36,274 bases of DNA from Bacilli bacterium (GTDB lineage: Bacteria; Bacillota_I; Bacilli_A; RF39; UBA660), in assembly GCA_028684255.1 (NCBI GenBank), contig JAQUGJ010000002.1, forward strand, positions 1 through 36,274, given 5' to 3'. Positions within the stretch are counted from its first letter, which is position 1, and every line of letters begins with the position of its first letter. Positions 8,146 to 27,138 of this stretch are shown here, in pieces. The notes below the pieces were generated by a model. That model had not been told where the DNA came from and did no database searches. It saw only the letters and a list, made by a program, of their open reading frames with translations. The position numbers were made by a program, and so were the translations under genes.

Positions 8146-9135
8146 ATGTTAATTATGACTAAATCTGTATTAGCGACTATGATCGGTTTTGTTTTAGCAG
8201 TAATGGTTGGACTTGTTTTAATACCTATTTTTAAGAAGAAAAATGCTCGTCAAAGGTTAAGTATTTATTTAGAAGAACAACATAAAACTAAAAACAATAC
8301 ACCAACAATGGGTGGATTAATTTTTATCATACCGACTTTATTTACGACCGTAATTTTATTTTTATTAAATAAAATAGATTTTAGTTACAGTTTATTAATA
8401 GTTATTTTTGTATTTGTTAGTTATTCTATAATCGGATTTATTGATGATTATTTAATTTTAAAAAGAAAGAACAATAAAGGTTTAAGTGAAAATTCTAAGT
8501 TGTTATTACAATTTATAATAGCGCTTGTCTTTTTTGCATTATTTATGCTTGAAAATGAGCCATTATTGTGGGTTCATTCTTTAAATATAAAGTATGATAT
8601 TGGTTGGTTATATGGAATTTTTATATTGTTGGTATTAGTTGCAAGTTCTAATGCGGTTAATATTACTGATGGGCTAGATGGATTAGCAGGGGGACTTTCG
8701 GTGATTGCTTTTTTTACTTTTGGTTTAATATCATGGAATAGTGGTTGGTTAGCAGGATACCAGGATATTGCTTTATTTTGTTTTATTTTAGTAGGTTCTT
8801 TATTAGGATTTTTAGTTTTTAATGTCTATCCGGCTAAGATATTTATGGGGGATACTGGATCTTTAAGCTTAGGGGCTTTATTAGGTACTGTTGCTATATT
8901 AACAAGGCATGAATTATTGCTAATATTAATAGGTATTGTTTTTGTTATTGAAACTTTGTCTTGTATTTTACAAAGGTACTATTATAAATTAACTAAGAGA
9001 AGACTTTTTCCAATGGCACCATTACATCATAGTTTTGAAAAAAAAGGTTTTAAGGAATCTGATATTGTTAAAATATTTTGGATAGTTGGTTTATTAGCGT
9101 CTATGATTGCTATTACTTTTGGAGTTTGGATATGA
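8146..9135 (+). CDS. mraY: Phospho-N-acetylmuramoyl-pentapeptide transferase
   Basis: KxxTPTMGG, GFIDDY, NAVNITDGLDGLA, GDTGSLSLG and PLHHSFE motifs. GAGGA RBS. Confidence 0.95.
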   Translation: MLIMTKSVLATMIGFVLAVMVGLVLIPIFKKKNARQRLSIYLEEQHKTKNNTPTMGGLIFIIPTLFTTVILFLLNKIDFSYSLLIVIFVFVSYSIIGFIDDYLILKRKNNKGLSENSKLLLQFIIALVFFALFMLENEPLLWVHSLNIKYDIGWLYGIFILLVLVASSNAVNITDGLDGLAGGLSVIAFFTFGLISWNSGWLAGYQDIALFCFILVGSLLGFLVFNVYPAKIFMGDTGSLSLGALLGTVAILTRHELLLILIGIVFVIETLSCILQRYYYKLTKRRLFPMAPLHHSFEKKGFKESDIVKIFWIVGLLASMIAITFGVWI

Positions 9136-10202
9136 AAAAAAATAGTGTTGAATTATTATTAGTAATATCGGTTGTTGCTTTAACTATCATTGGTCTTATA
9201 ATGATCTATTCATCTTCTAATGTATGGGCTTTATATAAGTTCAATGATTCTTTTAAGTATTTAAAAAATCAAGGTTTATTTTTTATTTTGAGTCTTTTTT
9301 TAATGTACTTAGTAAGTAAGATAGATTATTATAATTATTTAAAAAATTCAAATAAAATATTTTTTGTTATTTTAATATTACTTATATTAGTAATAATACC
9401 TGGTATTGGAACTATGAGAAATGGGAGTCGCAGCTGGTTTGGAATTGGTTCATTTGGAATTCAACCTAGTGAATTTGCAAAATTAGGGCTCATAATATTT
9501 TCATCTAAATATTTATCAAAAAACAGGAAAAGTTTTATTCCTGTTTTAGTAATAGCAATTATTTTTTTTGGACTTATTATGTTACAACCTGATTTTGGAA
9601 CTGGTATTGTTTTAATGATGATTATTGTGGCTTTATTATTTGTATCAGGTGTTGATGTTAATTTTTTTGTAAGAATCGGTTTCTTAGGATTAATAGGTAT
9701 AACGGGTCTTATTTTAGTAGCACCTTATAGATTACAAAGGATTTCTTCTTTTATTAATCCTTGGAATGATCCTTTAGGAAGTGGATTTCAAATAATTCAA
9801 TCTTTATATGCGATAGGTCCTGGAGGATTGTTTGGTTTTGGATTAGGAAATTCAAGACAAAAGCACTTTTATTTACCAGAACCTCAAACGGATTTTATAT
9901 TTTCAATTATATGTGAAGAATTAGGGTTTTTTGGTGTCTTATTAGTGGTTTTTCTTTTTATTCTCATAATTTCCACTGGTTTTAAGATAGCCTCTAAATG
10001 TGAGGATTTATTTGGCAAATTTTTAGCCTTTGGAATTACTTTTTGGATAGCGTTTCAAACTGTTCTTAATTTAATGGTGGTAGTTGGATTGATACCAGTA
10101 ACAGGAGTTACATTGCCTTTTCTTTCTTATGGAGGATCTTCTTTACTTATTTTATATATTGCAATTGGTATTGTTTTAAATATAAGTAGATATCAAAGGT
10201 AG
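9132..10202 (+). CDS. ftsW: SEDS-family peptidoglycan glycosyltransferase FtsW/SpoVE/RodA
   Basis: QPSEFAK, GPGGLFGFGLGNSRQK..YLPEPQTDFIF, and PxTGVTLPFLSYGGSS. The start is set at ATG 9132, which overlaps the mraY TGA (ATGA). The ORF-track extension from 9078 lies inside mraY. Confidence 0.9.
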   Translation: MKKNSVELLLVISVVALTIIGLIMIYSSSNVWALYKFNDSFKYLKNQGLFFILSLFLMYLVSKIDYYNYLKNSNKIFFVILILLILVIIPGIGTMRNGSRSWFGIGSFGIQPSEFAKLGLIIFSSKYLSKNRKSFIPVLVIAIIFFGLIMLQPDFGTGIVLMMIIVALLFVSGVDVNFFVRIGFLGLIGITGLILVAPYRLQRISSFINPWNDPLGSGFQIIQSLYAIGPGGLFGFGLGNSRQKHFYLPEPQTDFIFSIICEELGFFGVLLVVFLFILIISTGFKIASKCEDLFGKFLAFGITFWIAFQTVLNLMVVVGLIPVTGVTLPFLSYGGSSLLILYIAIGIVLNISRYQR

Positions 10203-10250: not shown

Positions 10251-11189
10251 ATGAGAGTAAAAGATGGTATCATTGGTTTTGCAGTTGGAGATGCTATGGG
10301 TGTTCCGACTGAGTTTCATAAAAGAGAAGACCTTTTAAAAAAACCTGTTACAAAAATGATAGAAAATAGGTTTGAAGGATTACCTAAAGGATCTTGGTCT
10401 GATGATACTTCTATGGTTGTAGCAACAATATATGCTTTAATGGAAAATGGCTTAAATTATAATAAGATTGCTGATAATTTTATAAAGTGGGTTAATGGTG
10501 ATGATTTTTGTTCTTATAACAAATGTTTTGGTATTGGAAGAACTACTTTAAAGGCTTTGGCAATGTATAATAGAGGGATGTTTAAAGCAGAAGAATGTGG
10601 TGGAAAAGCATTTGAGGATAATGGTAATGGTTCTTTAATGCGTATTCTTCCAATTGGTTATTATTGCCATTATAATAGAATTAATGAATCTGAAACAATT
10701 GATATTGTATCTAAGGTATCTTCTATTACACATGGTAATGAAATTAGTATTTTGGGCTGTTATTTGTATGTTAAATATTTGTCTTACATATTAGATAAGG
10801 ACTCTAAAGAAGAAGCATATAAAAAATTAAAATTATTAGATTTATCTTATTTTAGTGATGATTCTATTATAAGATATAAAAGAATATTAAAAGAAGATAT
10901 AAGTGATTTATATTTGGATGATATTAAATCATCTGGGTATGTAGTCGATACTTTAGAGGCTAGTCTTTGGTGCTTTTTAAAGTCTGATAATTTTAGAGAT
11001 TGTATAGTGGCTGCTATAAATCTTGGTGAAGATACTGATACCATAGCAGGTATAGCGGGTGGTCTTGCCGGCATTTACTATGGATATGAAACAATCCCTT
11101 TGAATTGGTTAAGGGATTTAGTAAAACTAGATTATTTAGTTTTAACTTCTAATAAATTTGAGGATTTTTTGAAAGTAGAGGATGTTTAA
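10251..11189 (+). CDS. ADP-ribosylglycohydrolase family protein
   Basis: GFAVGDAMGVPTEF, WSDDTSM, GNGSLMRILPIG and GEDTDTIAGIAGGLAGIYYG (di-metal ligand motifs). Confidence 0.85.
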   Translation: MRVKDGIIGFAVGDAMGVPTEFHKREDLLKKPVTKMIENRFEGLPKGSWSDDTSMVVATIYALMENGLNYNKIADNFIKWVNGDDFCSYNKCFGIGRTTLKALAMYNRGMFKAEECGGKAFEDNGNGSLMRILPIGYYCHYNRINESETIDIVSKVSSITHGNEISILGCYLYVKYLSYILDKDSKEEAYKKLKLLDLSYFSDDSIIRYKRILKEDISDLYLDDIKSSGYVVDTLEASLWCFLKSDNFRDCIVAAINLGEDTDTIAGIAGGLAGIYYGYETIPLNWLRDLVKLDYLVLTSNKFEDFLKVEDV

Positions 11190-11190
11190 T

Positions 11191-11685
11191 ATGGAAAAAA
11201 GAGATTTGTATAATTTTAATAAAGAGTTAATAGGAAAAACAATTTATAAAAAAGAGGATGTACCTGAAGGTTGTTATATTTTAGTGGTTTTATCATTTAT
11301 TCAAAATAGTAGAAAAGAGTTCTTAATTCAAAAGACAAGTATATCAAAAGGTTTGGAATGGGCTTTTACAGGAGGGCATCCAAAAGAGGGAGAGTCTTCT
11401 TTAATGGGAATATATACTGAAATAGAAGAAGAGTTAGGAATTAAGGTAAAAAATGCTATATGGTTTAAAGAGGTTAAAGGAAAGGACCGAATCTGTGATT
11501 TATATTATGTAAATGAAGATATTAGTTTAGATGATATTGTTATGCAAGAAGAGGAAGTTTCAGATGTTTGTTATGCCACAATTGAAGAGATTCATGATTT
11601 ATATAATTCTGGTTTATTTAAAAAAGGACATTATATGTTATTTAAAGATTGTTTAGAGTATTTAAATAATCAAGGTGATCTATGA
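11191..11685 (+). CDS. Nudix hydrolase
   Basis: Nudix box GGHPKEGESSLMGIYTEIEEELGI, in which the canonical Arg of the RE pair is replaced by Thr. The start is placed at ATG 11191, 9 nt after GAGGA. Confidence 0.8.
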   Translation: MEKRDLYNFNKELIGKTIYKKEDVPEGCYILVVLSFIQNSRKEFLIQKTSISKGLEWAFTGGHPKEGESSLMGIYTEIEEELGIKVKNAIWFKEVKGKDRICDLYYVNEDISLDDIVMQEEEVSDVCYATIEEIHDLYNSGLFKKGHYMLFKDCLEYLNNQGDL

Positions 11686-12254
11686 ATCAAGATAATTTAA
11701 AGAAAATCGAACAAAAAATTCAACTTTGTAATGAATGTAAGGATTTATTAAAATTAAGTTGTGATACTATATCTTTTGGACAAAATACAGATATTTTATT
11801 TGTAGGTGAATCACCTGCAAAAAACGGTTGGATATTAACTGGTAGAGCTTTTTATGACTCGAATGGTAAGTTATTACCTACTGGTAGGGTATTAAATAAA
11901 TTATTAGAGATAATTGATTTATCAATTGACGATATTACTTTTACAGAGGCCTGTAAATGTCATATACCTGATAGAAAAGATTTAAAAAAGTCTTCTTTAA
12001 ATTGTTTAAAGTATTTAGAAGAACAGATTAAAGAATTAAATTGTAAGGTTGTTATTCCGTTAGGAGCGTATCCTACTAAAATATTAATTGATAAAAAATT
12101 CAAAAATTTTAAAGAAGTTGCTGGGGATGTTTTTAGTAAAGAAATAGGTGATAAAGAGGTGTTAATTATCCCGATTTATCATCCTTCACCGATAAATCCA
12201 AATGGTTATAAATTAAATGTGCCAATATTTGAAAAAATTAAGAAATTGAATTAA
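11682..12254 (+). CDS. Uracil-DNA glycosylase superfamily protein (family 4/5-like, Fe-S type)
   Basis: Motif A-like GESPAKNGW and motif B-like YHPSP. The Cys pattern (CxxC at the N-terminus, CKC, and a later C) fits the 4Fe-4S UDG families. The ATGA start overlaps the Nudix stop. Confidence 0.7.
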   Translation: MNQDNLKKIEQKIQLCNECKDLLKLSCDTISFGQNTDILFVGESPAKNGWILTGRAFYDSNGKLLPTGRVLNKLLEIIDLSIDDITFTEACKCHIPDRKDLKKSSLNCLKYLEEQIKELNCKVVIPLGAYPTKILIDKKFKNFKEVAGDVFSKEIGDKEVLIIPIYHPSPINPNGYKLNVPIFEKIKKLN

Positions 12255-12336: not shown

Positions 12337-13446
12337 ATGAAAAAAATAGGTATTATTACATTTCACTGTGCAGATAATTTAGGAGCAGTACTTCAAGTTT
12401 ACGCTCTTCAAAAAAAAATAAATAAACTTGGTTTAGAATCAGAGGTAATCGATTTTAAACCACTTGAATTACTTTATCCTTATGGATTAAAGAATTTGAA
12501 AGATGTTAAAAAGAGAGGTTTTATAAAAACTATTAAAAGTATAGTTGTATTAATAATTAGAAGAAAAGTTAAAAATAAAAGGGATGTATTTAAAAAATTT
12601 AGAGAAAAGTATTTAGTTATTTCTAAACAAACATATTATGAATCTGAGGATTTGAATGCTAATCCTCCTCAATATGATTACTATATAACTGGAAGTGACC
12701 AAGTGTGGAATCCAGATTTTTTCGAGAAAATTGGAAAATCTTATTTTTTAGATTTTGCATCTCCTTCTTCAACAAAAATATCATATGCTGCTAGTATTAC
12801 TAAGAAAATGGATGATAGTTTTAATGATGTGTTTAAAAAAAATATAGACAGATTTGATTTTATTTCCATAAGAGAAAGTGAACATGTTAGGTTTTTAAAA
12901 AATTTAACTGAAAAACCAATAACTGTTGCACTAGACCCAACTCTATTATTGGACAAAGAAGATTATAATGTATTGTTAAGCAAATCAAAGATAAAGGAAA
13001 AATATATTTTGGTATATGATTTGGAATATAATGAAGAGTTAGTAAAATTAGCTAATAAGATATCAGAAGAAAAAGGTTATAAGATTGTTAGTTATTCTGA
13101 TCATAAAAACTATGAAAATAGAATTAAAACATTTAGATACGAAGGTCCAAGTGAATTCATTAGTTATTTAGAAAATGCAGAGTTTGTTTTAACAACTTCA
13201 TTTCATGGAGTAGCCTTTTCTGTCATTTTTAAAAAGCCTTTTTATACAATCCCTCATAAAACTAGAGGAACAAGAATGATTGATCTTTTAAATTCAATTG
13301 GTTTAGAGGATAGAATCGTATATAACTTTGATGATTTAGAAAGTATTAATTATGAACTTGATTATAGTAAACCTTTTGAATTACTTAATAAAAGAAGAGA
13401 AGAATCTTCTAACTTTTTAATTACTGCTTTGGATGAAAAAAAGTAA
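12337..13446 (+). CDS. Polysaccharide pyruvyl transferase family protein (copy 1)
   Basis: ITFHCADNLGAVLQVYAL, GSDQVWNP and TSFHGVAFSVIFKKPF are typical PS_pyruv_trans motifs. Confidence 0.8.
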   Translation: MKKIGIITFHCADNLGAVLQVYALQKKINKLGLESEVIDFKPLELLYPYGLKNLKDVKKRGFIKTIKSIVVLIIRRKVKNKRDVFKKFREKYLVISKQTYYESEDLNANPPQYDYYITGSDQVWNPDFFEKIGKSYFLDFASPSSTKISYAASITKKMDDSFNDVFKKNIDRFDFISIRESEHVRFLKNLTEKPITVALDPTLLLDKEDYNVLLSKSKIKEKYILVYDLEYNEELVKLANKISEEKGYKIVSYSDHKNYENRIKTFRYEGPSEFISYLENAEFVLTTSFHGVAFSVIFKKPFYTIPHKTRGTRMIDLLNSIGLEDRIVYNFDDLESINYELDYSKPFELLNKRREESSNFLITALDEKK

Positions 13447-13474
13447 TAAAAAAATATTAGAAAGTGTGTTATAA

Positions 13475-14986
13475 GTGGATAGAACAAAAAAATTCTTTTA
13501 CAATTCAATATCGGCAATATTCTATCAAATAATTTTAATGATTGTTGGAATTATTATTCCAAGGATTATGCTAAAATATTATGGCTCTGAAATTAACGGT
13601 TTGGTGTCATCTATTACTCAATTTGTATCATATTTTTATTTGGTTGAAGCAGGATTATCAGCAGCAGCAGTTTATGCATTATATAAACCTTTGGCTGATA
13701 AAGATAACAATTCTATTAATGCTGTTGTTTCTGCTGCAAGAAAATTTTATATTCAAACAGGTTATGTTTTTACCTTATTGGTTTTAGTATTTGCAATTTT
13801 TTACTCTTTTTATATAAAAACACCTTTTTTATCTCCAATAAATATTGGATTTTTAGTAATAATTTTAGGTGCTAATGGTGTAATAGATTTTTTTGCATTA
13901 TCTAAATATCGTGTTTTATTAACAGCTGATCAAAAAAATTATATTATTTCCTTATCTTCAGTGGTGTATTTGCTTTTAAATACGTTTATTATAATTATTT
14001 TAGGAACAGAACAAGTAAATATTGTGCTTCTAAAACTAGTAGCGATTTTACCTATATTTTTAAAGTCATTTATGATAATGATATATGCAAAGCATAATTA
14101 TAAATATTTAGATCATAAAGTAGCGCCTAATACAAAAGCATTAGATAAAAGATGGGATGCTCTATATTTACAAATTTTAGGTGTAATACAATCGGGTGCA
14201 CCAATTATAATTTTAACTTTTGTCACTAAAGATTTAAAATTAATTAGTTTGTATTCTATTTATAATATTGTTCTTGCAGGAGTTAATGGAATTTTAAATA
14301 TATTTCAAAGCGGATTACCGGCTTCATTTGGAGAAATAATCGCGAAGGGTGAAAAGAAAACTCTTCAAAGATCATATAATGAGTTTGAATTTTTCTACTA
14401 TTCATTAATAACGGTTATTTATTCAATAACGTTTGTTATGATTATGCCGTTTATTAAGATATATACAAGTGGTATAACTGATTTTAATTATAATATGCCA
14501 ATTGTAGGTTTCTTATTTGTATTGAATGGGTTATTATATAATTTAAAAACACCACAAGGTATGTTAGTAATATCTGCTGGTATGTATAAAGAAACTCGGG
14601 TTCAATCGACAATGCAAGGAATACTTATTGTACTTTTTGGATTAATTTTAACACCTTTTATTGGTATATATGGTGTATTAATAGGCGCTATTATTTCTAA
14701 TCTTTATAGAGATATTGATTTATTATTCTTTGTGCCTAAAAAAATAACAGGATTGACTATTATTAATACTTTAAAAAGAATGTTGAGGGTTTTTATTACT
14801 AGTCTTATTATTTGTTTACCTTTTCTATATATTAATATTGATCCATCAGGATATATTGAATGGATTTTATATGCCTCAGTAATTGGTGTTTATTCTGTTA
14901 TTGTTATGTTAATCATTAGTTTCATTTTTGATAGAAAAGCTTTAATGGATATTATTAAAAGGATTATAAGGATGGTGAAGAGATGA
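13475..14986 (+). CDS. wzx: MOP-family oligosaccharide flippase (Wzx-like)
   Basis: 503 aa and multi-TM, with N-terminus KKFFYNSISAIFYQIILMIVGIIIPRIMLKYYGSEINGL. GTG start. No ATG alternative preserves the first TM segment. Confidence 0.75.
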   Translation: MDRTKKFFYNSISAIFYQIILMIVGIIIPRIMLKYYGSEINGLVSSITQFVSYFYLVEAGLSAAAVYALYKPLADKDNNSINAVVSAARKFYIQTGYVFTLLVLVFAIFYSFYIKTPFLSPINIGFLVIILGANGVIDFFALSKYRVLLTADQKNYIISLSSVVYLLLNTFIIIILGTEQVNIVLLKLVAILPIFLKSFMIMIYAKHNYKYLDHKVAPNTKALDKRWDALYLQILGVIQSGAPIIILTFVTKDLKLISLYSIYNIVLAGVNGILNIFQSGLPASFGEIIAKGEKKTLQRSYNEFEFFYYSLITVIYSITFVMIMPFIKIYTSGITDFNYNMPIVGFLFVLNGLLYNLKTPQGMLVISAGMYKETRVQSTMQGILIVLFGLILTPFIGIYGVLIGAIISNLYRDIDLLFFVPKKITGLTIINTLKRMLRVFITSLIICLPFLYINIDPSGYIEWILYASVIGVYSVIVMLIISFIFDRKALMDIIKRIIRMVKR

Positions 14987-16179
14987 TTTCTGTATTTGAT
15001 AGAAAAGAAGAATGTTGTGGATGTACTGCTTGTATGAATATTTGTCCGACTAAGGCAATAAAGATGGTTGAGGATGAAGAGGGTTTTTTATATCCAAAAA
15101 TTGATCAAGCGTTATGTATTAATTGTGGTAAATGTAGAAAGGTTTGTCCTTTTCAAAATGAAATAAATATAAGTAATAAACTTTCTAAGCCAACAGTTTA
15201 TGCAGTTAAACACAATAAAGAAAGTGTTAGAATGAAAAGTTCTTCCGGAGGTGTTTTTACTGCAATTTCAGATTATGTTTTAAATAATGGTGGCGTTGTT
15301 TATGGAGCAGCATTTGATGAAAATTTTAATGTTATTCATAAAAAAGCTGAAACTTCTGAAGAATGTAATAAGTTTAGAGGGTCAAAATATGTTCAAAGTG
15401 ATTTGTCAAATGTATATAAGCAAATAAAAGACTTATTAAAAAGCGACCGTCAAGTACTTTTTTCTGGAACCCCATGTCAAACTGCTGGGTTAAAAAGTTT
15501 TTTAACAAATAGTCGTACTAATACTGATAATTTAATAATAAACGATATTGTTTGCCATGGAACACCAAGTCCTAAAATATGGTTAGATTATATTGATTTT
15601 ATTGAAAAAGGTAATAAACTTAAATCCTATAGTTTTAGATTTAAAGAAAGAGGATGGCATGGATATAATATAATGGCCGAATATAAAAACGGAAAAAGAA
15701 AAATTAATACTAAAGAATTAAAAATTTTTACGAATTTATTTAGTTCTGATTTATTATTAAGACCTTCATGTCATAATTGTAAATTTGCTAATATAGATAG
15801 GAAATCTGATATTACTATTGGTGATTTTTGGGGAATAGAAAAAACTATGCCGGGAATTGATGATAACAAAGGAATTTCGCTTGCTTTAGTTAATACAGTA
15901 AAAGGTGAGCAAGTTTTCGAAAAAATTAAAGAAAATATTGATTTTTGGGAAAATAAGATAGAAGATTCTTTGCAACCTAATTTAATATCGCCAACTAAAA
16001 AGCCCTTAAAAAGAGAAGTTTTTTGGGAATACTATTATAAAAATGGATTTTTATTTATAGCAAAAAAATATGGTGGATATAATTTTAAATCTTATATGAA
16101 AAGCAAGATAAGATATGTGTTACAAAAAACCGGTACTTTCAATTTGATAAAATCTATTTTAGGGAAAAAAAAGGTTTAA
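14983..16179 (+). CDS. FrhB/FdhB-like (coenzyme F420 hydrogenase beta-subunit family) 2x[4Fe-4S] protein (copy 1)
   Basis: Two CxxCxxCxxxCP motifs (CCGCTACMNICP, CINCGKCRKVCP). The FrhB_FdhB-like body includes SSSGGVFTA, GTPCQ and the DIVCHGTPS and GDFWG regions. The ATGA start overlaps the wzx stop. Confidence 0.75.
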   Translation: MISVFDRKEECCGCTACMNICPTKAIKMVEDEEGFLYPKIDQALCINCGKCRKVCPFQNEINISNKLSKPTVYAVKHNKESVRMKSSSGGVFTAISDYVLNNGGVVYGAAFDENFNVIHKKAETSEECNKFRGSKYVQSDLSNVYKQIKDLLKSDRQVLFSGTPCQTAGLKSFLTNSRTNTDNLIINDIVCHGTPSPKIWLDYIDFIEKGNKLKSYSFRFKERGWHGYNIMAEYKNGKRKINTKELKIFTNLFSSDLLLRPSCHNCKFANIDRKSDITIGDFWGIEKTMPGIDDNKGISLALVNTVKGEQVFEKIKENIDFWENKIEDSLQPNLISPTKKPLKREVFWEYYYKNGFLFIAKKYGGYNFKSYMKSKIRYVLQKTGTFNLIKSILGKKKV

Positions 16180-16280
16180 TTATCTAGATTTATTGTTTAA
16201 TTAAATGGTTACAAATCAAACTTTTTAATGTTTGAAAATTTGATCAACATATATTTAATTTTAATGAATATATTATTTCA

Positions 16281-16330
16281 GGAAGTGTTTATTTAAAAGC
16301 TTTTGTCTTTAATAAAAACTTCTTTTTATT
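16281..16330 (+). terminator. Long hairpin terminator after the first capsule operon
   Basis: GGAAGTGTTTATT (16281-16293) pairs with AATAAAAACTTCT (16311-16323). There are 12 pairs, including one G-U, and one mismatch. TTTTTATTTT follows. Confidence 0.55.
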
Positions 16331-16343
16331 TTAAAAACAAAAA

Positions 16344-16388
16344 AGATTGTATTTTTTATTTAAATTTGCTATTATTGTTATAACATAG
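16344..16388 (+). promoter_or_regulatory. Promoter cassette copy 2 (TTGTAT-17-TATTAT), 42/45 identical to 12279-12323
   Basis: -35 at 16347-16352 and -10 at 16370-16375. The start codon is again exactly 27 nt after the -10 element. This copy contains the perfect palindrome TGTTATAACA (16376-16385). Confidence 0.55.
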
Positions 16389-16401
16389 GAGGTGATTTAA
16401 G

Positions 16402-17733
16402 TTGAAAAAATGGAAACAATTAATTCTTGTTGGTTTATTAATGATTCAAACATTTAGTTTTATTCCCTTATCAACTTCTGCATTATCAAAAAGTGAGTTG
16501 CTTGAAGATTATGTAGAGATACGTGATAAAGCAGATCTTACAATGGATAACATTTTAAATTTCTTAACGACTTATGATGATGAATTAAGTGACGTTATTA
16601 CGATAGAGTTAGCAGGTCATTTAATTGATGATTTTGTTGCTAGAGATGTAGCGGCATTTATTGATCACGTTATATCTGTTTTTGAAGTAGACTCACAATT
16701 GGCAATTGATTTAAATGCTTTAAAACCAGAAGCGGTTGTTTTAAAAGACGATATTATACAATATAAAGAGGATGCTTTGGAGTTTATTAACAGTGATGAA
16801 AATATAACTGCTAGTGATTTAACTAGTACTGTAGAAGACTCTATTGACAGTGGTTTAAAAGCACTTCAAATTATTGATAAGTTAGTAGAAATATTCAATA
16901 ATAGTACTTTGGGTGATGTTGATATTGAAGCAATTATTAATTCAGAGTTTGAGGAAGTAATAACAAAGATTCGCAATAATATGAATACAATTATTGCTGA
17001 ACAAGAGATCTCACTTATCAATCATTTAGATTCTATTAGAGATGATCTTATTTTAAATGATGAACAAAAATTTGATAGGATAATAGATATTATTGTATTG
17101 TTAGAAGAAGTTGAAGCAAGGATGCATAATACTTTTATTAGAATGGATGCAGTTGTATCTACAGACCTTGTAACAAATTATTTAACTAAGATAAGTGCAT
17201 TTTCTTCTAGAGAAATGAATAATATTATTATACTAGTTAAGAAATATTTAATTGATGAAATGACGGTTTCAATGCTTGATGAAAATTATGGTTCATCTGA
17301 GTATGTTAATAATATTATAGTTCCAGTTTATGGTGTTGTAGTTGATCCTAATCCAGTTATAAGGTTACAACCTTCACACCTTTATTTAATTGGCCAAAGA
17401 CCTATCAGTGATTTAAATGATGTAGAAGATAATCTATATACTAATAGTGGTAGTATGAGATATTCTGATTTGATATCAGGTAGGGTTGGAACTGGTTCTA
17501 TGATGCATGTTAATAATGGAAATGAAGATGTTTTATCTTATACGTTTATTATTAAAGGTGACTTATTAGGCCGTGCATTATCAGATATAACAGATATTTT
17601 CAGATTGATTGATGGTGTATTAGGAACTAATAATTTAACGGGAATTTATCAAACAGCTGGAGATATGAACGATGATTTAAATAATGATATATCCGATGTA
17701 TTCCAATTAATTGATCAAGTATTAGGAAGATAG
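16402..17733 (+). CDS. Secreted acidic helical protein with a C-terminal dockerin-like module
   Basis: TTG start 7 nt after GGAGGTG. Signal peptide MKKWKQLILVGLLMIQTFSFIPLSTSA. The C-terminus (nt 17548-17730) has two dockerin-type repeats: GDLLGRALSDITDIFRLIDGVLG (degenerate loop) and GDMNDDLNNDISDVFQLIDQVLG (canonical DxNxDxxxxxxD). Confidence 0.65.
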   Translation: MKKWKQLILVGLLMIQTFSFIPLSTSALSKSELLEDYVEIRDKADLTMDNILNFLTTYDDELSDVITIELAGHLIDDFVARDVAAFIDHVISVFEVDSQLAIDLNALKPEAVVLKDDIIQYKEDALEFINSDENITASDLTSTVEDSIDSGLKALQIIDKLVEIFNNSTLGDVDIEAIINSEFEEVITKIRNNMNTIIAEQEISLINHLDSIRDDLILNDEQKFDRIIDIIVLLEEVEARMHNTFIRMDAVVSTDLVTNYLTKISAFSSREMNNIIILVKKYLIDEMTVSMLDENYGSSEYVNNIIVPVYGVVVDPNPVIRLQPSHLYLIGQRPISDLNDVEDNLYTNSGSMRYSDLISGRVGTGSMMHVNNGNEDVLSYTFIIKGDLLGRALSDITDIFRLIDGVLGTNNLTGIYQTAGDMNDDLNNDISDVFQLIDQVLGR

Positions 17734-17744
17734 GAGGTAGAAAA

Positions 17745-18881
17745 GTGAAAAATATTTTAAAATCTGTAGTCATTATGGGGGCTTTTTTTATAGGGATGTG
17801 GCAAGTTAATGCTGCTAGTGCTGGTTTAACTACTAGTAAAACCAGTGTTTTAACTTCACAAACTACTAAAGTAAGCTTAATTATAAATGCTGATGCTAGG
17901 GTACGTGGTGGTCAGTTTAATTTAGGATTAAATAACAGTAATTTTGAAATTGTTAGTGTAGTAGGTGCTAGTGGTTTAAATATTAGTAAAAATGGTAATT
18001 TATATTTATCTTTACTTATGGAAGCAGATTATTCTATTCCATCTGGAAGTGCTATAGCAGTTGTTACATTAAGAGCTAAGTCTTCTACGGTAGGAGCTAC
18101 TTCTGTATTAACAGCAAGTAATATAGGGGTTACTTTAGCAGGTAGTTATGAAACTGTGCCAGTACCTTCTAAGTCTTTAACGCTTAGAATAGCAACACCA
18201 CCAAAAGCAGATCCTGTTGTTCCAAAGTCAACTGATAATAGTTTAAAGGAATTAACGACTAGTATTGCAGGTTTAGAGTTTAATCCAAATACACTTGTTT
18301 ATAACGCAACTGTAGATAGTAGTGTTAAAAGTGTTAATATAACGGCTTTGGCAAACGATTCTAAAGCTACTGTAGAAATAACAGGTAATAATGATTTAAA
18401 GTTAGGAAAGAATGTTATTTTGGTAAAAGTAACAGCTGAAGATGAAAGTGTTAAAACTTATACGATAAATGTTACTAAATCAGGATCTAATAATAATTTC
18501 TTGTTAAGTTTAAAAGTAGAAGGTTATGATATAAATCCTGTATTTAATAAAGATACAAAAAGATATGATGTAAAAATAGATTCAGTAGAAATAGATAAAT
18601 TAGATATTGAAGCTATAGCAGAGGATTTAAAATCAACTGTTAAGATTATAGGTAATGAAGGTTTAATAGAAGGTAGAAACATTATTAAGATAATTGTTAC
18701 TTCTGAGACTGGAGAAGAAAATACTTATAATTTAGTTGTTAATTTAGGATCTGAGTTAGAAAATGCTAAAGATACTAATAATAATTTACTAATTATCAGT
18801 AATTTAATAATAATTGCCATTGCAGGAATTGTAATTACAGTAATATTAGTAAAGAAAAAGAAAAATGAGAAAGACTTGTAA
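17745..18881 (+). CDS. Membrane-anchored scaffold protein: cohesin-like domain, two cadherin-like beta-sandwich repeats and a C-terminal TM anchor
   Basis: GTG start after AGGAGG, with a signal peptide. The cohesin-like region (about nt 17817-18200) includes KVSLIINADARVRGGQFNLGLNNSNFEIVSVVG...AVVTLRAKS. Two repeats of about 83 aa (18234-18479 and 18492-18746) follow the pattern L.eL..s...l.P.F......Y...V......v.i.A.a.d..atv.i.G...L..G.N.i.v.Vta..........Y.i.V. The C-terminus is LLIISNLIIIAIAGIVITVILVKKKK. Confidence 0.65.
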   Translation: MKNILKSVVIMGAFFIGMWQVNAASAGLTTSKTSVLTSQTTKVSLIINADARVRGGQFNLGLNNSNFEIVSVVGASGLNISKNGNLYLSLLMEADYSIPSGSAIAVVTLRAKSSTVGATSVLTASNIGVTLAGSYETVPVPSKSLTLRIATPPKADPVVPKSTDNSLKELTTSIAGLEFNPNTLVYNATVDSSVKSVNITALANDSKATVEITGNNDLKLGKNVILVKVTAEDESVKTYTINVTKSGSNNNFLLSLKVEGYDINPVFNKDTKRYDVKIDSVEIDKLDIEAIAEDLKSTVKIIGNEGLIEGRNIIKIIVTSETGEENTYNLVVNLGSELENAKDTNNNLLIISNLIIIAIAGIVITVILVKKKKNEKDL

Positions 18882-18897
18882 AACAAGTCTTTTTTTA
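18871..18897 (+). terminator. Rho-independent terminator after the cohesin gene
   Basis: AAGACTTG (18871-18878) pairs with CAAGTCTT (18884-18891). The loop TAAAA contains the stop codon. A T-run follows. Confidence 0.7.
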
Positions 18898-19053: not shown

Positions 19054-19082
19054 TTGACTAAAACTTAAAAATGATTAATAAT
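19054..19082 (+). promoter_or_regulatory. Second, tandem promoter candidate ahead of the priming transferase
   Basis: TTGACT (19054-19059), 17-nt spacer, AATAAT (19077-19082). Confidence 0.4.
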
Positions 19083-21377: not shown

Positions 21378-22484
21378 ATGAAGGTTTCGATAATTACAAT
21401 ACATAGAGTATTAAACTATGGAACGGTATTACAATCTTTCGCTACACAAGAACTAATTAAAGAGTTGGGATGTGAGGTGGAAATAATAGATTATATTACC
21501 GAGGAAAGAAATTTTAAAAAAATATTTTTATGGTCTCCTAAATCGTTAAAAAATTTTAAATTACGAAAAGTAATATATGTTTTATCTAGATTTCCAGCTA
21601 ATTTATTAAAACATCTTTCTTTTTCTCAATTTATTAATAAATATTATTTATTAACAAAAAGAAAATACTATACAATTAATGATTTGAAAAAAAACCCACC
21701 TTCTTCAGATATTTACTTAGTCGGAAGCGATCAAGTCTGGAATAGTAAATATAACGGAGGTGTAGATAGAGGTTTTTTCTTAGATTTTGGAGATGAAAAT
21801 ACCAAAAAAATATCTTATGCATCAAGTTTTGGCTCGAATGAATTACAAAAAAATGATTTTATAGAAATAAATAAGTTATTATCTAAATTTAATTTTATAT
21901 CTGTTCGTGAAGATACAGGAGTAAAGATTCTAAATGATATGGGATATAGTGCAGAGTTGGTGCTTGACCCTACATTAATGTTAAATAAAGATAAATGGTT
22001 ATCGTACATAAAAAGCAAAAAAATCAATAGAAGATATGTTTTATTATTTATTTTATATAATGAAGATAATGGTGCAACTCAATATGCAAGAAAAATAGCT
22101 GACAAATTAGGTCTTGAAGTTATCCAATTATATTGGAAACCAATTAAGAGACAAGGGGTAGATAGAATTGCTATTTACAAAAGTCCTTTTGAATTTTTGC
22201 GATATATAAGGGATGCAGAATATATAGTAACAAATTCTTTTCACGGCACAGCATTTGCCATAAATTTTAACAAACAATTTATTACTGTTGCTAGAAGTGA
22301 ATTTAATACAAGATTAGAGAGTATTTTAAGACTATGTAAATTAGAAAATAGATATATAACTAAAAAAATTAATATTAAAGAAGTAATAAAAAAAATTAAC
22401 TATACACTAGTTAACGAAATACTAGAAAAAGAACGTAATAAATCCTTATCTTATCTTGAAAAAGCAATATATAAAAGAGAGTAG
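21378..22484 (+). CDS. Polysaccharide pyruvyl transferase family protein (copy 2)
   Basis: ITIHRVLNYGTVLQSFA, GSDQVWNS and NSFHGTAFAINFNKQF. It is a paralogue of the gene at 12337-13446. Confidence 0.8.
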   Translation: MKVSIITIHRVLNYGTVLQSFATQELIKELGCEVEIIDYITEERNFKKIFLWSPKSLKNFKLRKVIYVLSRFPANLLKHLSFSQFINKYYLLTKRKYYTINDLKKNPPSSDIYLVGSDQVWNSKYNGGVDRGFFLDFGDENTKKISYASSFGSNELQKNDFIEINKLLSKFNFISVREDTGVKILNDMGYSAELVLDPTLMLNKDKWLSYIKSKKINRRYVLLFILYNEDNGATQYARKIADKLGLEVIQLYWKPIKRQGVDRIAIYKSPFEFLRYIRDAEYIVTNSFHGTAFAINFNKQFITVARSEFNTRLESILRLCKLENRYITKKINIKEVIKKINYTLVNEILEKERNKSLSYLEKAIYKRE

Positions 22485-22491
22485 GAATAAA

Positions 22492-23502
22492 ATGAAAATA
22501 CTTTTCTTAGGAGATTATAAAGCTAATACGGGACCTTCAAATGTAAATAAAAATTTAAAAGAATACTTACCAAAAAATGTGATTTATATCAATAGTTCAA
22601 AAAAAATTTTTAGAATCATTGAAATATTCATAAAAGCATTTTTATCAAATGTAATAATAATATCTGGACATTCGAAAAGTAATCGAATTTGCATAAATAT
22701 ATCAAAAATATTTGGAAGAAAAAAGAAAATATTAAATATTCAGCATGGCTCAGCATCATATGAAAATGAAACAAATAATTTAAATAACAAAAAAATGGTA
22801 ATTGAAGAAAAATATCTTTTAGATAATGTAGATTTAATTTTATGTGTTTCAGAAAATTTTATGAAATGGTTTAAAAATTATAGTCCACAATATAGTCATA
22901 AAACTTCGTATTTAAACAATGGAGTTGATTGGGGAATACTTGATAAAGAAAAAAACAAAACAATAATTAATAAGGAACCAAATACTATAATAACTATGGG
23001 CGGCGGTAGACCACAAAAAAATAATGTAATGATATGTGAAGCAATAAAAATTTTAAATGAAGAAAAAAACAAAAAATATAAATTAATAGTATTAGGTAGA
23101 GACTATGAAGATACTGAAAAAATTAAATCATATAATTTTGTCGATTATGTTGGACAAGTTAAATACGAGGAAGCATGCTATTATTTAAAAAAATCTTCAA
23201 TTTTTATTCAAAACAGTTCTCTTGAATCGTTTGGGTTAGCAACGATTGAGGCGCTATTGAGTGGGTGTAACATATTAGTTTCAAAAAATGTTGGAGCTAT
23301 TAGTATTTTAACATTAATTGATGAAATTGACATTATCGGTGACTGTAATAACCCTAATGAAATTGCTAGTAAAATATTATATTTATCGAAAAATCCTAAT
23401 AATAAAAGGATAATAAGAGATCTTGATAAAAACAAGACATCTTATAAATATGCAGCAAATAGATTAATGGAAATAGTAAGAGAATTAGTGATAAAGGAGT
23501 AA
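22492..23502 (+). CDS. GT4 (group 1) glycosyltransferase
   Basis: C-terminal ESFGLATIEALLSGCNILVS (E-x7-E region). The start is set at ATG 22492, after the upstream stop at 22484. Confidence 0.75.
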   Translation: MKILFLGDYKANTGPSNVNKNLKEYLPKNVIYINSSKKIFRIIEIFIKAFLSNVIIISGHSKSNRICINISKIFGRKKKILNIQHGSASYENETNNLNNKKMVIEEKYLLDNVDLILCVSENFMKWFKNYSPQYSHKTSYLNNGVDWGILDKEKNKTIINKEPNTIITMGGGRPQKNNVMICEAIKILNEEKNKKYKLIVLGRDYEDTEKIKSYNFVDYVGQVKYEEACYYLKKSSIFIQNSSLESFGLATIEALLSGCNILVSKNVGAISILTLIDEIDIIGDCNNPNEIASKILYLSKNPNNKRIIRDLDKNKTSYKYAANRLMEIVRELVIKE

Positions 23503-23507
23503 ATTTA

Positions 23508-24692
23508 ATGAATAATGTAATTCAAAAGATTAAAATAGATAATTCAAGTTCACAGAAAAAACAAAAAAACATTACACCGCGAGGGAAAAAAAACAAATTT
23601 AATCAAATAATATATATTGTAATGTTAATATTGTTTTTTTTAAACTGGTCAACTCCATCAATTCATATCAAAATTAGGGAGATACTTCCAGTGTTTACTG
23701 CTTTATTATTATTATTTTTAGTATTAATAAATATTAATGAAATATATAAAGATAATAAACAACTTTTTATTTTTATATTTATTATAATTTTAACATTAAT
23801 AGGTATGGTGGTGAATAATTCTAATTTAGGTGTCTTTTTTGTAATATTTAATTTTTCATTAATGCTACTAGTTAGTAGTAAAGTTGAATTTACTGATAGG
23901 TTTATAATTATTTTATCGTGTTTGTTCCTGCTCTTTTTTTTCTATTGGATAACCTTGTGTCCTGAAGGATTTAATACAAATAGTATTGGTCTTGTAACTT
24001 TAGTAACATATATTTGTAGTTTATATTTTATTTTTTCAATCAAAGAAAGTTTTTTTAAAAAAATTTTAATTTTATTAATCACTTTTATTGCATATAAAAA
24101 CGTATTGGTTTCCGAATCACGCTCTTGTTTTATAGGTTTAATTTCATTTACATTTTTGTGTTATATAATACCTAAAAAAATGTGGTTAAATAATAAATCA
24201 TTAAAATTTATATATTTATTAATAACAATAGGCTCGATTTATTTTGTTATGTTATATATATTTATGTGGGAAAATAATATTACTTTTATTATAGAAGGAT
24301 TTTCAAAAAATTTTTTTTCAGGAAGAGAAGCAATTTGGTATGAGTTATGGAATTTATTTAAATTAAATCCAATTTTTGGATTAGGATCAAATATTGATTT
24401 GACATCAAATTCAAATTTGAATGTGCATAATTCTATGTATAATCTTTTGGTAATTTATGGTTTGCTAATTTTTATCTTGATTATTATTCAGATATGTAAA
24501 CATTTTTCAAATATATCTTTAGATAAAAATAAAAATAAATTTATTTTAATTTCATTTGCTGGATTTATTTCTATAGCGGTGCAAAGTTTTTTTGAAAATA
24601 CATTAATTTCAGTTAACTTTATTCCTATTATATTATTTTTACTTACTACAGCAAATTCAAATATATTAAAAAAGGAATTAAAAAAAAATTAA
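23508..24692 (+). CDS. wzy: O-antigen ligase/polymerase-family membrane protein (Wzy)
   Basis: About 10 or more TM segments. The Wzy_C-like block runs SESRSCFIGLI ... GREAIW ... GLGSN...NVHNSMYNLLVIYGLLIF. Confidence 0.75.
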   Translation: MNNVIQKIKIDNSSSQKKQKNITPRGKKNKFNQIIYIVMLILFFLNWSTPSIHIKIREILPVFTALLLLFLVLININEIYKDNKQLFIFIFIIILTLIGMVVNNSNLGVFFVIFNFSLMLLVSSKVEFTDRFIIILSCLFLLFFFYWITLCPEGFNTNSIGLVTLVTYICSLYFIFSIKESFFKKILILLITFIAYKNVLVSESRSCFIGLISFTFLCYIIPKKMWLNNKSLKFIYLLITIGSIYFVMLYIFMWENNITFIIEGFSKNFFSGREAIWYELWNLFKLNPIFGLGSNIDLTSNSNLNVHNSMYNLLVIYGLLIFILIIIQICKHFSNISLDKNKNKFILISFAGFISIAVQSFFENTLISVNFIPIILFLLTTANSNILKKELKKN

Positions 24693-24722
24693 AATTTTAG
24701 TGAAGTGAGAGTGATTTAATAG

Positions 24723-25880
24723 ATGATTTTACAATTTAAAGATAAAAAAAATTGTTGTGGATGTGCAGCATGTATAAATATATGTCCAACGAAAGCTATA
24801 TCAATGGAAACTGATAATTATGGATTTATATATCCCAAAATCAATCATGATATATGTATAGAATGTGGTAAATGTAAAAAAGTATGTGCTTACCAAAATG
24901 TGCCTATTTCAGGGAAAAAACCTCTTGCAACATATGTTGCTATTAACAAAGATAATGACATTCTTTTATCAAGTACTTCAGGAGGTATATTTGGTGCTTT
25001 ATCTAGTGTTGTTTTTGACAAAAAAGGTGTTGTTTTTGGATGTGCTTATAATGGAAATATGGAACCAGTTCATATATGCATTGATAACCCTTTAGATATG
25101 AAAAAACTTCAAGGTTCTAAATACGTCCAAAGCAATATTAATTTCAGCTTTAAAGAAACTGAAAAATATTTAAAAAAATCAAGATTTGTTTTGTTCACGG
25201 GCGCCCCCTGCCAAATAGCTGCTTTAAAATCTTATCTAGGTAAAGATTACGATAATCTAATAACTGCTGATATTATATGTCATGGTGTTCCTAGCATTGC
25301 CTTTTTTAACGATTATATTAAACATATAGAAAAAAAAACGGATGGTAAAGTAATTAACATTAATTTTAGAGATAAATCAAGAGGTTGGGGATTAAAAGGA
25401 ACAATTACTTATACTAAAAGAGGAAAAATAAAAACAAAGTACATATTACCATTTGAATCCTATTATTATAATTATTTTTTAAAAGGTTATACTTATCGTG
25501 AAAATTGTTATGAATGTAAATATGCATGTGAGAGCAGAGAAGGAGATTTTACAATGGGTGACTTCTGGGGAATAGAATCTATTCATCCGGAAATAGAAAC
25601 TAAAAGAGGAGTTTCTATATTATTAGTAAATAGTAAAAAAGGTGTTATATTAATTGAACAATTAAAAAAATATTTAAATTTAACTAAATCAACCTTTGAA
25701 GCAGCTAGAAGAGAAAACGGTCAACTAAATAGACCCACTATAAAAAGTAAGAAAAGAGAAGAAATACTTGACGCTTGGCAAACTTATGGCTATGAAACCG
25801 TTGCTAGGAATTATTATAAGGAAAATAAATTGTTTATAAATAAAATTAAATTTGTCATCTCTAAAACAATAAAAAAATAA
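24723..25880 (+). CDS. FrhB/FdhB-like 2x[4Fe-4S] protein (copy 2)
   Basis: CCGCAACINICP and CIECGKCKKVCA, followed by SSTSGGIFGA, GAPCQ, DIICHGVPS and GDFWG. It is a paralogue of the gene at 14983-16179. Confidence 0.75.
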   Translation: MILQFKDKKNCCGCAACINICPTKAISMETDNYGFIYPKINHDICIECGKCKKVCAYQNVPISGKKPLATYVAINKDNDILLSSTSGGIFGALSSVVFDKKGVVFGCAYNGNMEPVHICIDNPLDMKKLQGSKYVQSNINFSFKETEKYLKKSRFVLFTGAPCQIAALKSYLGKDYDNLITADIICHGVPSIAFFNDYIKHIEKKTDGKVININFRDKSRGWGLKGTITYTKRGKIKTKYILPFESYYYNYFLKGYTYRENCYECKYACESREGDFTMGDFWGIESIHPEIETKRGVSILLVNSKKGVILIEQLKKYLNLTKSTFEAARRENGQLNRPTIKSKKREEILDAWQTYGYETVARNYYKENKLFINKIKFVISKTIKK

Positions 25881-27081: not shown

Positions 27082-27138
27082 TTAATTAAAGCATAAATAA
27101 TATATAATTATATATGAGTATTAAATATGGAGGGTATC

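Follow-up and report, generated by a model that had tools for sequence, protein, structure and literature searches.

Organization of the A-B Gene Pair

The window considered here is the whole stretch of 36,274 nucleotides (nt) at the start of contig JAQUGJ010000002.1 of a Bacilli bacterium, and its central feature is a pair of adjacent genes, named A and B, whose products resemble the two halves of a cohesin-dockerin docking system. All coordinates refer to the whole window and are given on the forward strand. The guanine plus cytosine (GC) content is about 25% throughout, and every open reading frame (ORF) of at least 100 amino acids (aa) lies on the plus strand, except for one small overlapping ORF. 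The two genes and their expression signals are the following:

16402..17733, plus strand: gene A, an ORF of 443 aa with a TTG start (orthologues P0002-P0005, P0126 and P0128-P0132)
17745..18881, plus strand: gene B, an ORF of 378 aa with a GTG start (family P0006-P0028)
16280..16334, plus strand: weak terminator-like hairpin (16280-16324) and U-run that end the upstream unit, from RNA folding
16347..16375, plus strand: candidate promoter TTGTAT-17 nt-TATTAT, read from the sequence and below the threshold of the promoter scan
16387..16394, plus strand: Shine-Dalgarno site of A, AGGAGGTG, read from the sequence, 7 nt before the TTG start and the same in the related loci L012 and L013
17732..17737, plus strand: Shine-Dalgarno site of B, AGGAGG, read from the sequence and overlapping the stop codon of A
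18867..18897, plus strand: intrinsic terminator after B, a scan match with a 13-bp stem (hairpin 18867-18895) and a T-run

A preliminary description of this DNA, made from its letters, had reported two neighboring ORFs separated by 11 nt, and both were found exactly where it had placed them. Gene A ends with a TAG codon, and each gene is preceded by its own Shine-Dalgarno site. The single terminator that had been proposed for the pair was borne out by the scan match after B and by RNA folding, in which this hairpin has a free energy (dG) of -13.1 kcal/mol and a z-score of -4.3, with none of 200 shuffled sequences folding equally well. The hairpin before A is weaker (dG -10 kcal/mol, z -2.3, 6 of 200 shuffles equally good); a strict terminator scan did not find it at 16280-16324, and it is kept in the close relatives L012 and L013. 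The region of the candidate promoter is also largely conserved in these two relatives, where the -10 element and the spacer are identical and the -35 element reads TTGCAT. A consensus promoter scan of the window returned 38 sites against 40 expected, which is no more than chance, and such a scan is uninformative at 25% GC. From the sequence, a single promoter common to A and B is plausible. Rfam (whole window and upstream leader) and a tRNA scan returned nothing, and there is no riboswitch upstream of A.

Protein B, a Cohesin on a Membrane-Anchored Stalk

In protein B, a signal peptide is followed by a domain with a cohesin fold, by two Cadherin-like sandwiches, and by a transmembrane helix with a Lys tail. 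The parts that follow the signal peptide are located as follows:

17817..18194, plus strand: cohesin domain, aa ~25-150, basic (pI ~9.8), from Foldseek of the AlphaFold2 model
18195..18239, plus strand: Pro-rich linker, aa 151-165, TPPKADPVVPKS..., read from the sequence; its length varies among orthologues
18240..18749, plus strand: two Cadherin-like beta-sandwiches that make up the stalk, aa ~166-246 and ~250-335, from Pfam PF12733
18786..18878, plus strand: C-terminal transmembrane helix L348-V369 and cytoplasmic tail KKKKNEKDL, read from the sequence; the helix spans 344-376 in the model

The AlphaFold2 model of B, built on 20 family members, has a mean predicted local distance difference test (pLDDT) score of 84. 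It contains the signal-peptide helix, a beta-sandwich at residues 23-149, a second and a third one at 167-245 and 253-334, and the C-terminal helix. The first sandwich, modeled with a pLDDT of about 85-92 over aa 25-150, is predicted to be nine-stranded and flattened, and superimposes on solved cohesins. Its best Foldseek matches in the PDB are three non-cellulosomal cohesins of Clostridium perfringens, i.e., 2w1n, the cohesin-FN3 structure of GH84C (E 3.4e-10), 2jh2 (template modeling score, TM-score, of 0.79 normalized to the target, root-mean-square deviation of 2.7 A, 22% identity), and 2vo8 (TM-score 0.80, deviation 2.1 A). The next ones are 5lxv, 4ums, 1g1k, and 2o4e, and cellulosomal cohesins are among the matches that come after the top three. 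When the whole of B was used, Foldseek also returned protocadherins and S-layer proteins; these matches were set aside, with TM-scores below 0.2 that reflect strings of sandwiches only.

Further support for the cohesin assignment was provided by the orthologues. Eleven of 14 orthologous domains match Pfam Cohesin (PF00963) at E<=10, and among the nine that were scored, which are 48-66% identical, six pass the gathering score of 24.1 bits (27.4, 27.0, 26.9, 25.3, 25.3, and 24.9 bits), with the remaining three below it (22.8, 22.1, and 19.1 bits). Because orthologous domains pass the Pfam cut-off, the N-terminal domain of B, as modeled, is a true, although divergent, cohesin, and the cohesin-like sandwich of the preliminary description holds.

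The same is true of the two cadherin-like repeats and of the C-terminal membrane anchor that had been assigned to B. The Cadherin-like family PF12733 matches in two stretches (E 2.6e-16, 60.3 bits against a cut-off of 24.2), both sandwiches are modeled at pLDDT >90, and it was the sole family that Pfam and NCBIfam returned when A and B were scanned in full length. Anchoring by a sortase was considered and rejected, as no conserved LPXTG-type motif precedes the transmembrane helix in 20 orthologues; the Gram_pos_anchor profile gives only E 0.82 on B and spans nothing but the hydrophobic segment and the tail. Thus, from its sequence, B is best read as a type I membrane protein held by its transmembrane helix, despite the sortase gene present at 30499-31689. 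A cohesin was also sought on proteins of 500-660 aa with Cadherin-like and SH3_3 domains that were retrieved with B, and the domain is absent from them.

Protein A, a Divergent Dockerin on an Acidic Helical Protein

Protein A starts with a signal peptide, followed by an acidic helical domain of about 260 aa, a beta-hairpin, and a dockerin-like module made of two repeats:

16402..16485, plus strand: signal peptide, aa 1-28, MKKWKQ...STSALS, with a Lys-rich N-region, a hydrophobic core, and an Ala-x-Ser-type end; putative cleavage site
16486..17271, plus strand: cargo, an acidic all-helical domain, aa ~29-290, from AlphaFold2 helices
17467..17553, plus strand: beta-hairpin 'GTG...YTFIIK', aa 356-384, conservation 0.62, matched jointly with the dockerin in unrelated proteins
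17554..17730, plus strand: dockerin-like module, aa 385-443, the most conserved part of A (0.75-0.77)

The two C-terminal repeats, GDLLGRALSDITDIFRLIDGVLG and GDMNDDLNNDISDVFQLIDQVLG, occupy aa 386-408 and 420-442 as tandem F-hand repeats of ~22 residues, each with a loop and a helix, and share 12 of 23 residues. The helices that follow their loops are closer still, with 8 of 11 residues identical (DIFRLIDGVLG vs DVFQLIDQVLG). The loops differ, as the preliminary description had noticed: loop 2 (D421-D432, DMNDDLNNDISD) has the full D1-N3-D5-D9-D12 pattern of a calcium site, and loop 1 (D387-D398, DLLGRALSDITD) carries L389 at position 3 and R391 at position 5, with no Asn or Asp ligand at either. 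A classical type I dockerin has D1-N/D3-D/N5-D/N9-D12 in both loops, a pattern that loop 2 fits and loop 1 does not. Across the 12 orthologues, loop 1 always has a hydrophobic residue at position 3, and its position 5 is occupied by Arg in 11 of them and by Asn in P0128. Since the same substitutions occur in nearly all of the orthologues, the degenerate loop 1 is a conserved feature and not the result of decay, and the guanidinium group of its Arg probably stands in for the calcium ion. The asymmetry of the loops argues for one calcium site, so that the module is probably a divergent, single-calcium dockerin and not a classical type I one. The near identity of the helices makes a dual-binding mode possible.

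The relationship to dockerins is supported by three kinds of search. A family profile of A, made from the five first homologues and run against 1.84 billion representative proteins at E<=1e-3, gave 472 matches. About 20 of these are full-length A-type proteins, and the others align only at profile positions ~365-450, nearly all of them at the extreme C-terminus of proteins 60-2210 aa long; Pfam Dockerin_1 was found in 105 of the 124 matches that were scanned. When ten orthologues were used to build a profile of the module and this was compared with the PDB, dockerins came out on top, led by 2ccl_B (E 0.016) and followed by 6kg9 and 1ohz_B, with 2y3n_B, 3ul4_B, and 4uyp_B lower in the list. In Pfam, where the gathering score of Dockerin_1 (PF00404) is 22.9 bits, the A orthologue of L007 reaches 20.9 bits and P0275, a distant A-type relative of 468 aa, exceeds the cut-off with 28.0 bits. 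On these comparisons, the homology of the C-terminus of A to dockerins appears solid. The beta-hairpin in front of the module, '..GTGm.v.i..g.....YtivVtGD' (A 320-384, 17359-17553), also precedes the dockerin in many unrelated proteins, P0140-P0273, which would fit a conserved extension on the N-terminal side of this class of dockerins.

The N-terminal part of A agrees with the secreted, very acidic, helical protein that had been proposed. The signal peptide has a grand average of hydropathy of 0.94 and a net charge of +3; the mature protein has a pI of 4.09 and a net charge of -49, with 77 Asp and Glu residues against 28 Lys and Arg, and the segment aa 29-300 taken alone has a pI of 4.08 and a net charge of -39. 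The AlphaFold2 model of A, built from 5 sequences, has a mean pLDDT of 51 and a C-terminus that is unusable. In this low-confidence model, nine long helices lie between residues 31 and 289 (pLDDT 60-80), followed by strands at 344-382 and by short helices at 397-407, 414-419, and 431-440. Foldseek of the model gave generic helical matches only (E>=0.047). The best PDB match of the cargo profile, the 'putative lipoprotein' 8s2f (E 0.006), was rejected as not meaningful because it reflects compositional bias. PHROGs and PADLOC gave no phage or defense assignment.

Conservation of the Pair

A-type proteins are rare, with 5 clusters in a word-indexed search and 9 representatives at E<=1e-30 in an exhaustive one, and the B family falls into 23 clusters when grouped at 90% identity. 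A survey of genome contigs returned two loci from metagenome-assembled genomes. In all 11 B-bearing loci (L001-L009, L012, and L013), as well as in the window, the gene directly 5' of B is of the A type, with 439-451 aa; in L005 the contig ends within gene A. When the window and eight pair-bearing loci were scanned in six frames with hidden Markov models, one dockerin and one cohesin, and no more, turned up in each. Furthermore, the 'GDLLGR' dockerin subtype is confined to A-type proteins among the 1.84 billion representatives, and the cohesin subtype of B is confined to the B family. In the L002 orthologue of A (8657-9992, on a JGI contig), a frameshift splits the gene into ORFs of 346 and 108 aa and leaves the dockerin fragment intact; this may reflect a pseudogene or an error of the assembly.

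The modules expected to interact are the best conserved parts of the two proteins. In A, the conservation of the dockerin contrasts with that of the cargo, which is the lowest of the protein (0.45); in B, the cohesin (0.73) exceeds the Cadherin-like stalk (0.61-0.63) and the transmembrane segment (0.47). Their charges are complementary in every orthologue, since all 14 cohesins are basic (pI 8.4-11.7) and the dockerins are acidic (net charge -1 to -8).

A search with the cargo alone led to a family of 468-aa proteins with a precomputed Dockerin_1 assignment, and this family reveals a remote form of the pair. The 468-aa helical-dockerin gene is followed in both L010 and L011, after a gap of again 11 nt, by a gene for a 275-aa protein that has a signal peptide, a cohesin-like domain, a charged EK-rich helical linker, a transmembrane helix, and a KKK tail. 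Its domain aligns with the cohesin of B in hhalign with a probability of 94.5% (E 7.6e-8). Because this remote pair keeps the same two-gene logic with a different stalk, the modules of A and B appear to be cognate, and a logic that outlasts the replacement of the stalk is the strongest argument available for this view. The remote pair occupies 366-2611 of L010 and 3272-5517 of L011, with a sortase-pilus (SpaA/VWA) cluster about 4 kb downstream. The 90% cluster of P0137, the 468-aa version, has 700 members, i.e., it is abundant in metagenomes.

Position Beside Polysaccharide Loci

Polysaccharide genes flank the pair on both sides in the window. Upstream of A are genes for a flippase, an MraY-like glycosyltransferase (GT) of family GT4, an FtsW-like protein, a pyruvyl transferase, a 503-aa protein of unknown type, and an FrhB-like Fe-S protein. 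Downstream of B, the Bac_transf priming transferase at 19071 is followed by three GT2 enzymes, a second pyruvyl transferase, a GT1 enzyme, Wzy, Wzz, a CpsD-like kinase, and CpsB. The preliminary description had seen no glycoside hydrolase (GH) or cellulosome gene nearby, and none is present in the window. With one cohesin and one dockerin per locus, and a cargo that has neither a GH nor a carbohydrate-binding module (CBM), the pair does not correspond to a cellulosome or a scaffoldin.

Polysaccharide genes are found directly 3' of the pair in the window and in L001, L002, L007, L008, L009, L012, and L013. The upstream flanks of L001, L002, and L007-L009 differ from that of the window and contain PolC, TopA, or a TrmA-like methyltransferase; directly after B these loci have rml, CapD-like, epimerase, Bac_transf, GT, or Wzy genes. 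In the two close relatives L012 and L013, whose B is 94% identical, the upstream flank and the pair are kept and the downstream capsular polysaccharide (cps) sets differ. The pattern is that of a conserved flank beside a serotype-variable locus.

Proposed Function and Alternative Explanations

Taken together, A and B are best explained as a bicistronic, non-cellulosomal cohesin-dockerin display module whose cargo acts on, or together with, the envelope polysaccharide, a reading to which we would assign a probability of about 0.68. Both proteins would be exported by the Sec pathway. B would be kept in the membrane by its C-terminal helix, with the Lys tail inside, and would hold its single basic cohesin about 15 nm out on the stalk formed by the Cadherin-like domains and the Pro-rich linker. 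Cleavage of the signal peptide would free A from the membrane, and the acidic dockerin at its C-terminus would then be captured non-covalently by the cohesin of B, with one canonical Ca2+ loop and, in the degenerate loop, the conserved Arg probably replacing the ion. The outcome would be one fast-evolving, highly acidic helical cargo per stalk, at the outer membrane face or in the inner zone of the wall. Because the unit sits in the conserved 5' flank of a variable Wzy-type locus, the cargo most likely acts on or with the polysaccharide layer, in its organization, retention, or protection. In this picture the structure of the genes, the identities of the domains, the conservation of the pair, and the synteny are shown, and export, 1:1 binding, the use of calcium, the reach, and the role of the cargo are inferred.

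The preliminary description had also allowed for a cargo displayed beyond the capsule. This is unlikely, because the modeled stalk comprises two sandwiches of about 4 nm each and a 15-residue linker rooted at the membrane, which together with the cohesin would give the estimated reach of about 15 nm.

Several results weigh against the display module, and the alternatives draw on them. Full-length A of the window has no Dockerin_1 match in Pfam, and its isolated 62-aa module stays below the threshold (15.5 bits, E 0.02, Dockerin_1 positions 11-57 of 57). The cohesin domain of B from the window has no Pfam Cohesin match, either within the full-length protein or isolated, at E<=10, and the model of A is poor over the dockerin module (pLDDT ~30). 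The classical 8-3-6-5 binding sheet of the cohesin does not stand out in strand-level conservation (entropy 0.83 vs 0.88 bits). Searches of PDB sequences with A and B by phmmer, and of the PDB with the cohesin-domain profile, returned nothing. Of the three Pfam families that had been named at the outset, then, the Cadherin-like one is present in the window itself, and the Cohesin and Dockerin_1 cut-offs are passed by six of nine orthologous domains and by the distant relative, respectively, but missed by the window copies. The Pfam check that had been proposed is thus formally failed by these copies, and the support comes from orthologues, profiles, and structure. One might conclude that there is no cohesin-dockerin system at all, the domain of B being a generic Ig-like sandwich and the C-terminus of A an EF-hand-like motif or a chance repeat. 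This view is disfavored and has very little probability left, as Foldseek, for single domains, places cohesins specifically at the top, with TM-scores of about 0.8, orthologous domains and P0275 score above the respective Pfam cut-offs, and 105 of the 124 scanned matches of the A profile are Dockerin_1 proteins aligned at their C-terminal end.

Another view accepts both modules as genuine and denies that they are mutual partners: B would take other dockerins, or A would dock elsewhere, and the adjacency of the genes would reflect co-regulation. Many dockerin proteins of unrelated architecture occur in related metagenomes, cellulosomal cohesins are typically promiscuous within a type (see also PMC5429695), and the 36 kb that were inspected are a small part of a genome in which further cohesin and dockerin genes may lie. 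Nevertheless, A and B are strictly adjacent throughout the loci, even where the identity of A falls to 23-45%, the remote 468/275-aa pair repeats this logic, and each subtype is limited to its own family with one copy of each per locus, which makes this second view rather improbable.

A further possibility, more substantial than these two and still on the unlikely side, is that the display unit is real and has nothing to do with the polysaccharide locus. The role of the cargo would then be that of a variable coat, an adhesin, or a phage decoy, and the synteny would arise at a recombination-prone island of surface antigens. Because the pair ends at its own terminator, it is outside the cps transcript, and it probably has its own promoter as well. 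The distribution of the pair relative to cps loci, which had been proposed as informative, supports the association in part: polysaccharide genes follow the pair in six of eight independent contexts, and there is no such link in L003/L004/L006, where the pair comes after a sortase, a 255-aa membrane protein, and a pilin-like protein and before rpsD and ezrA, in L005, where a GGDEF/HD-GYP gene lies downstream, or in the remote loci L010 and L011, which are without cps genes. The cargo diverges quickly while the anchor modules are conserved, as expected of an exposed antigen, and non-cellulosomal cohesin and dockerin proteins are usually read as adhesins (PMC10553843). What speaks for the polysaccharide is that polysaccharide genes come directly after the pair whichever of five different upstream flanks precedes it, and that a short, membrane-rooted stalk, as modeled, is unlikely to pass the wall and the capsule.

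The cargo itself has no relative in Pfam, NCBIfam, the PDB (sequence or profile), Foldseek, PHROGs, or PADLOC, in line with the lack of a recognizable motif remarked on earlier. Since it is without detectable relatives, its role, whether a structural function in the envelope or polysaccharide or that of an exposed variable coat or adhesin, is inferred purely from synteny and composition. A more specific proposal would make the pair an extracellular accessory of Wzy-dependent capsule or exopolysaccharide assembly in low-GC monoderms, in which the cohesin stalk holds the acidic helical protein by the export and polymerization machinery, where it would organize, retain, or set the length of the nascent polysaccharide. 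This proposal is a speculative one and unlikely as it stands; if true, it would be the first cohesin-dockerin system that builds a glycan and does not degrade it, with a new helical protein family. If the polysaccharide link were mere synteny, the pair would be a routine addition to the catalogue of cohesin and dockerin proteins that are non-cellulosomal.

Comparison with Known Cohesin-Dockerin Systems

Non-cellulosomal cohesin- and dockerin-like modules were reportedly surveyed by Peer et al. in 2009 (FEMS Microbiol Lett 291:1). In cellulosomes, anchoring scaffoldins are bound to the cell by S-layer homology (SLH) domains, as in SdbA and OlpB of C. thermocellum, or by a sortase signal, as in ScaE of R. 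flavefaciens. They resemble the present pair in that a cell-bound cohesin captures a secreted dockerin partner and spacer modules precede the anchor. However, the anchor of B is a plain C-terminal transmembrane helix and not an SLH domain or an LPXTG motif, and the pair has a single cohesin and a single cargo, with no CBM or GH.

Non-cellulosomal cohesin and dockerin modules are recognized and widespread, mostly on non-catalytic proteins, and a cellulosome is defined by at least two cohesins in combination with a dockerin-bearing GH (PMC13487519). The A-B pair falls outside this definition because no CBM or GH is present. The minimal system of Cellulosilyticum lentocellum, in which the one-cohesin protein ClcC is found with a dockerin-GH5 (PMC13487519), is similar in being a 1:1 arrangement outside the multi-cohesin scaffoldin scheme, and differs in that A-B is associated with the synthesis of polysaccharide and not with its degradation.

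The best-studied non-cellulosomal case is that of the toxin complexes of C. perfringens (GH84 NagH/NagJ and GH33; 2jh2, 2vo8, 2w1n, and 2o4e) (PMC3821032). It provides the closest structural matches to the cohesin of B, and in this Firmicute, too, a cohesin-dockerin contact unrelated to cellulose joins two secreted proteins. The C. perfringens partners are both large GHs and the cohesin is internal to the enzyme, whereas that of B tops a dedicated, membrane-anchored, non-catalytic stalk, and the dockerin of A is attached to a non-enzymatic acidic helical domain and has a degenerate first calcium loop. Consortia of anaerobic methanotrophic archaea and sulfate-reducing bacteria express cohesin/dockerin 'adhesin' complexes (PMC10553843); like these and the surveyed non-cellulosomal modules, A-B involves mainly non-catalytic parent proteins, with no assigned role, in organisms without cellulosomes.

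The literature search returned no description of a stalk made of a cohesin, two Cadherin-like domains, and a transmembrane helix, of the helical-dockerin cargo family, of an obligate operonic pairing such as that of A and B, or of its position at the flank of cps loci. The pair represents a known docking system in a non-cellulosomal form, found repeatedly next to capsule-type clusters in uncultured low-GC bacteria. Non-cellulosomal cohesin-dockerin pairs are widespread and almost none has an assigned role. Compact, strictly paired, and located where the conserved flank borders a variable capsule-type locus, in uncultured Firmicutes from gut or sediment, A-B offers a tractable test case, because both proteins are small, a single interface is predicted, and one phenotype is obvious, all of them open to assay, and it can reveal the function of such systems in the cell envelope. 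The dockerin has its own appeal for protein engineering, with symmetric helices and one loop in which a conserved Arg takes the place of calcium ligands.

Other Features of the Window and of Related Loci

At 444-2667, a large serine recombinase of 530 aa (Resolvase, Recombinase, and Zn_ribbon_recom domains) is encoded immediately upstream of a 189-aa 3' fragment of a penicillin-binding protein (PBP) gene, which covers positions 194-298 of 299 of the Transpeptidase profile and a PASTA domain. This looks like an integrated element that splits a PBP2B/SpoVD-type gene, with the start of the window inside the element.

Between 2695 and 10202, genes for an alanine racemase, an ATP-grasp ligase, a Wzx-type flippase, an MraY-like GT4, and an FtsW/RodA/SpoVE-family protein lie by the polysaccharide genes. 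This peptidoglycan-style set points to a secondary wall polymer that carries peptides or is linked to lipid, rather than to a plain capsule. A polysaccharide pyruvyl transferase and an FrhB/FdhB-like 4Fe-4S protein occur as one set on either side of the A-B pair (12337-16179 and 21378-25880); the same duplication is present in L012 and suggests two pyruvylated glycans. A trio of ADP-ribosylglycohydrolase, NUDIX, and uracil-DNA glycosylase (UDG) superfamily genes is found inside the polysaccharide region at 10251-12254; among the close relatives it is complete in L012 (679-2682), and L013 retains the NUDIX and UDG genes.

Proteins with a prepilin-type N-terminal methylation motif are encoded at 6594-8066 of the window (490 aa, with CBM_4_9 and Laminin_G_3 domains) and, as a 534-aa counterpart with GLUG repeats, directly 5' of the pair in L003 (6984-8588) and L006 (583-2187); the similarity between them is confined to the N-terminal ~58 residues. 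A sortase with an N-terminal extension of about 260 aa, followed by a multi-transmembrane protein of about 250 aa without a family, is encoded at 30499-32419 of the window and at 5076-6987 of L003. The two sortases are 42% identical, and the multi-transmembrane proteins share 26% identity (E 4e-6). These two genes accompany A-B in two otherwise different loci, although B has no LPXTG motif.

Finally, the region 27127-28360 of the cps cluster, between the glycosyltransferases and the Wzz/CpsD/CpsB genes, encodes a VanZ-like protein along with a homologue of staphylococcal nuclease that is secreted and contains a Listeria-Bacteroides (Flg_new) repeat.

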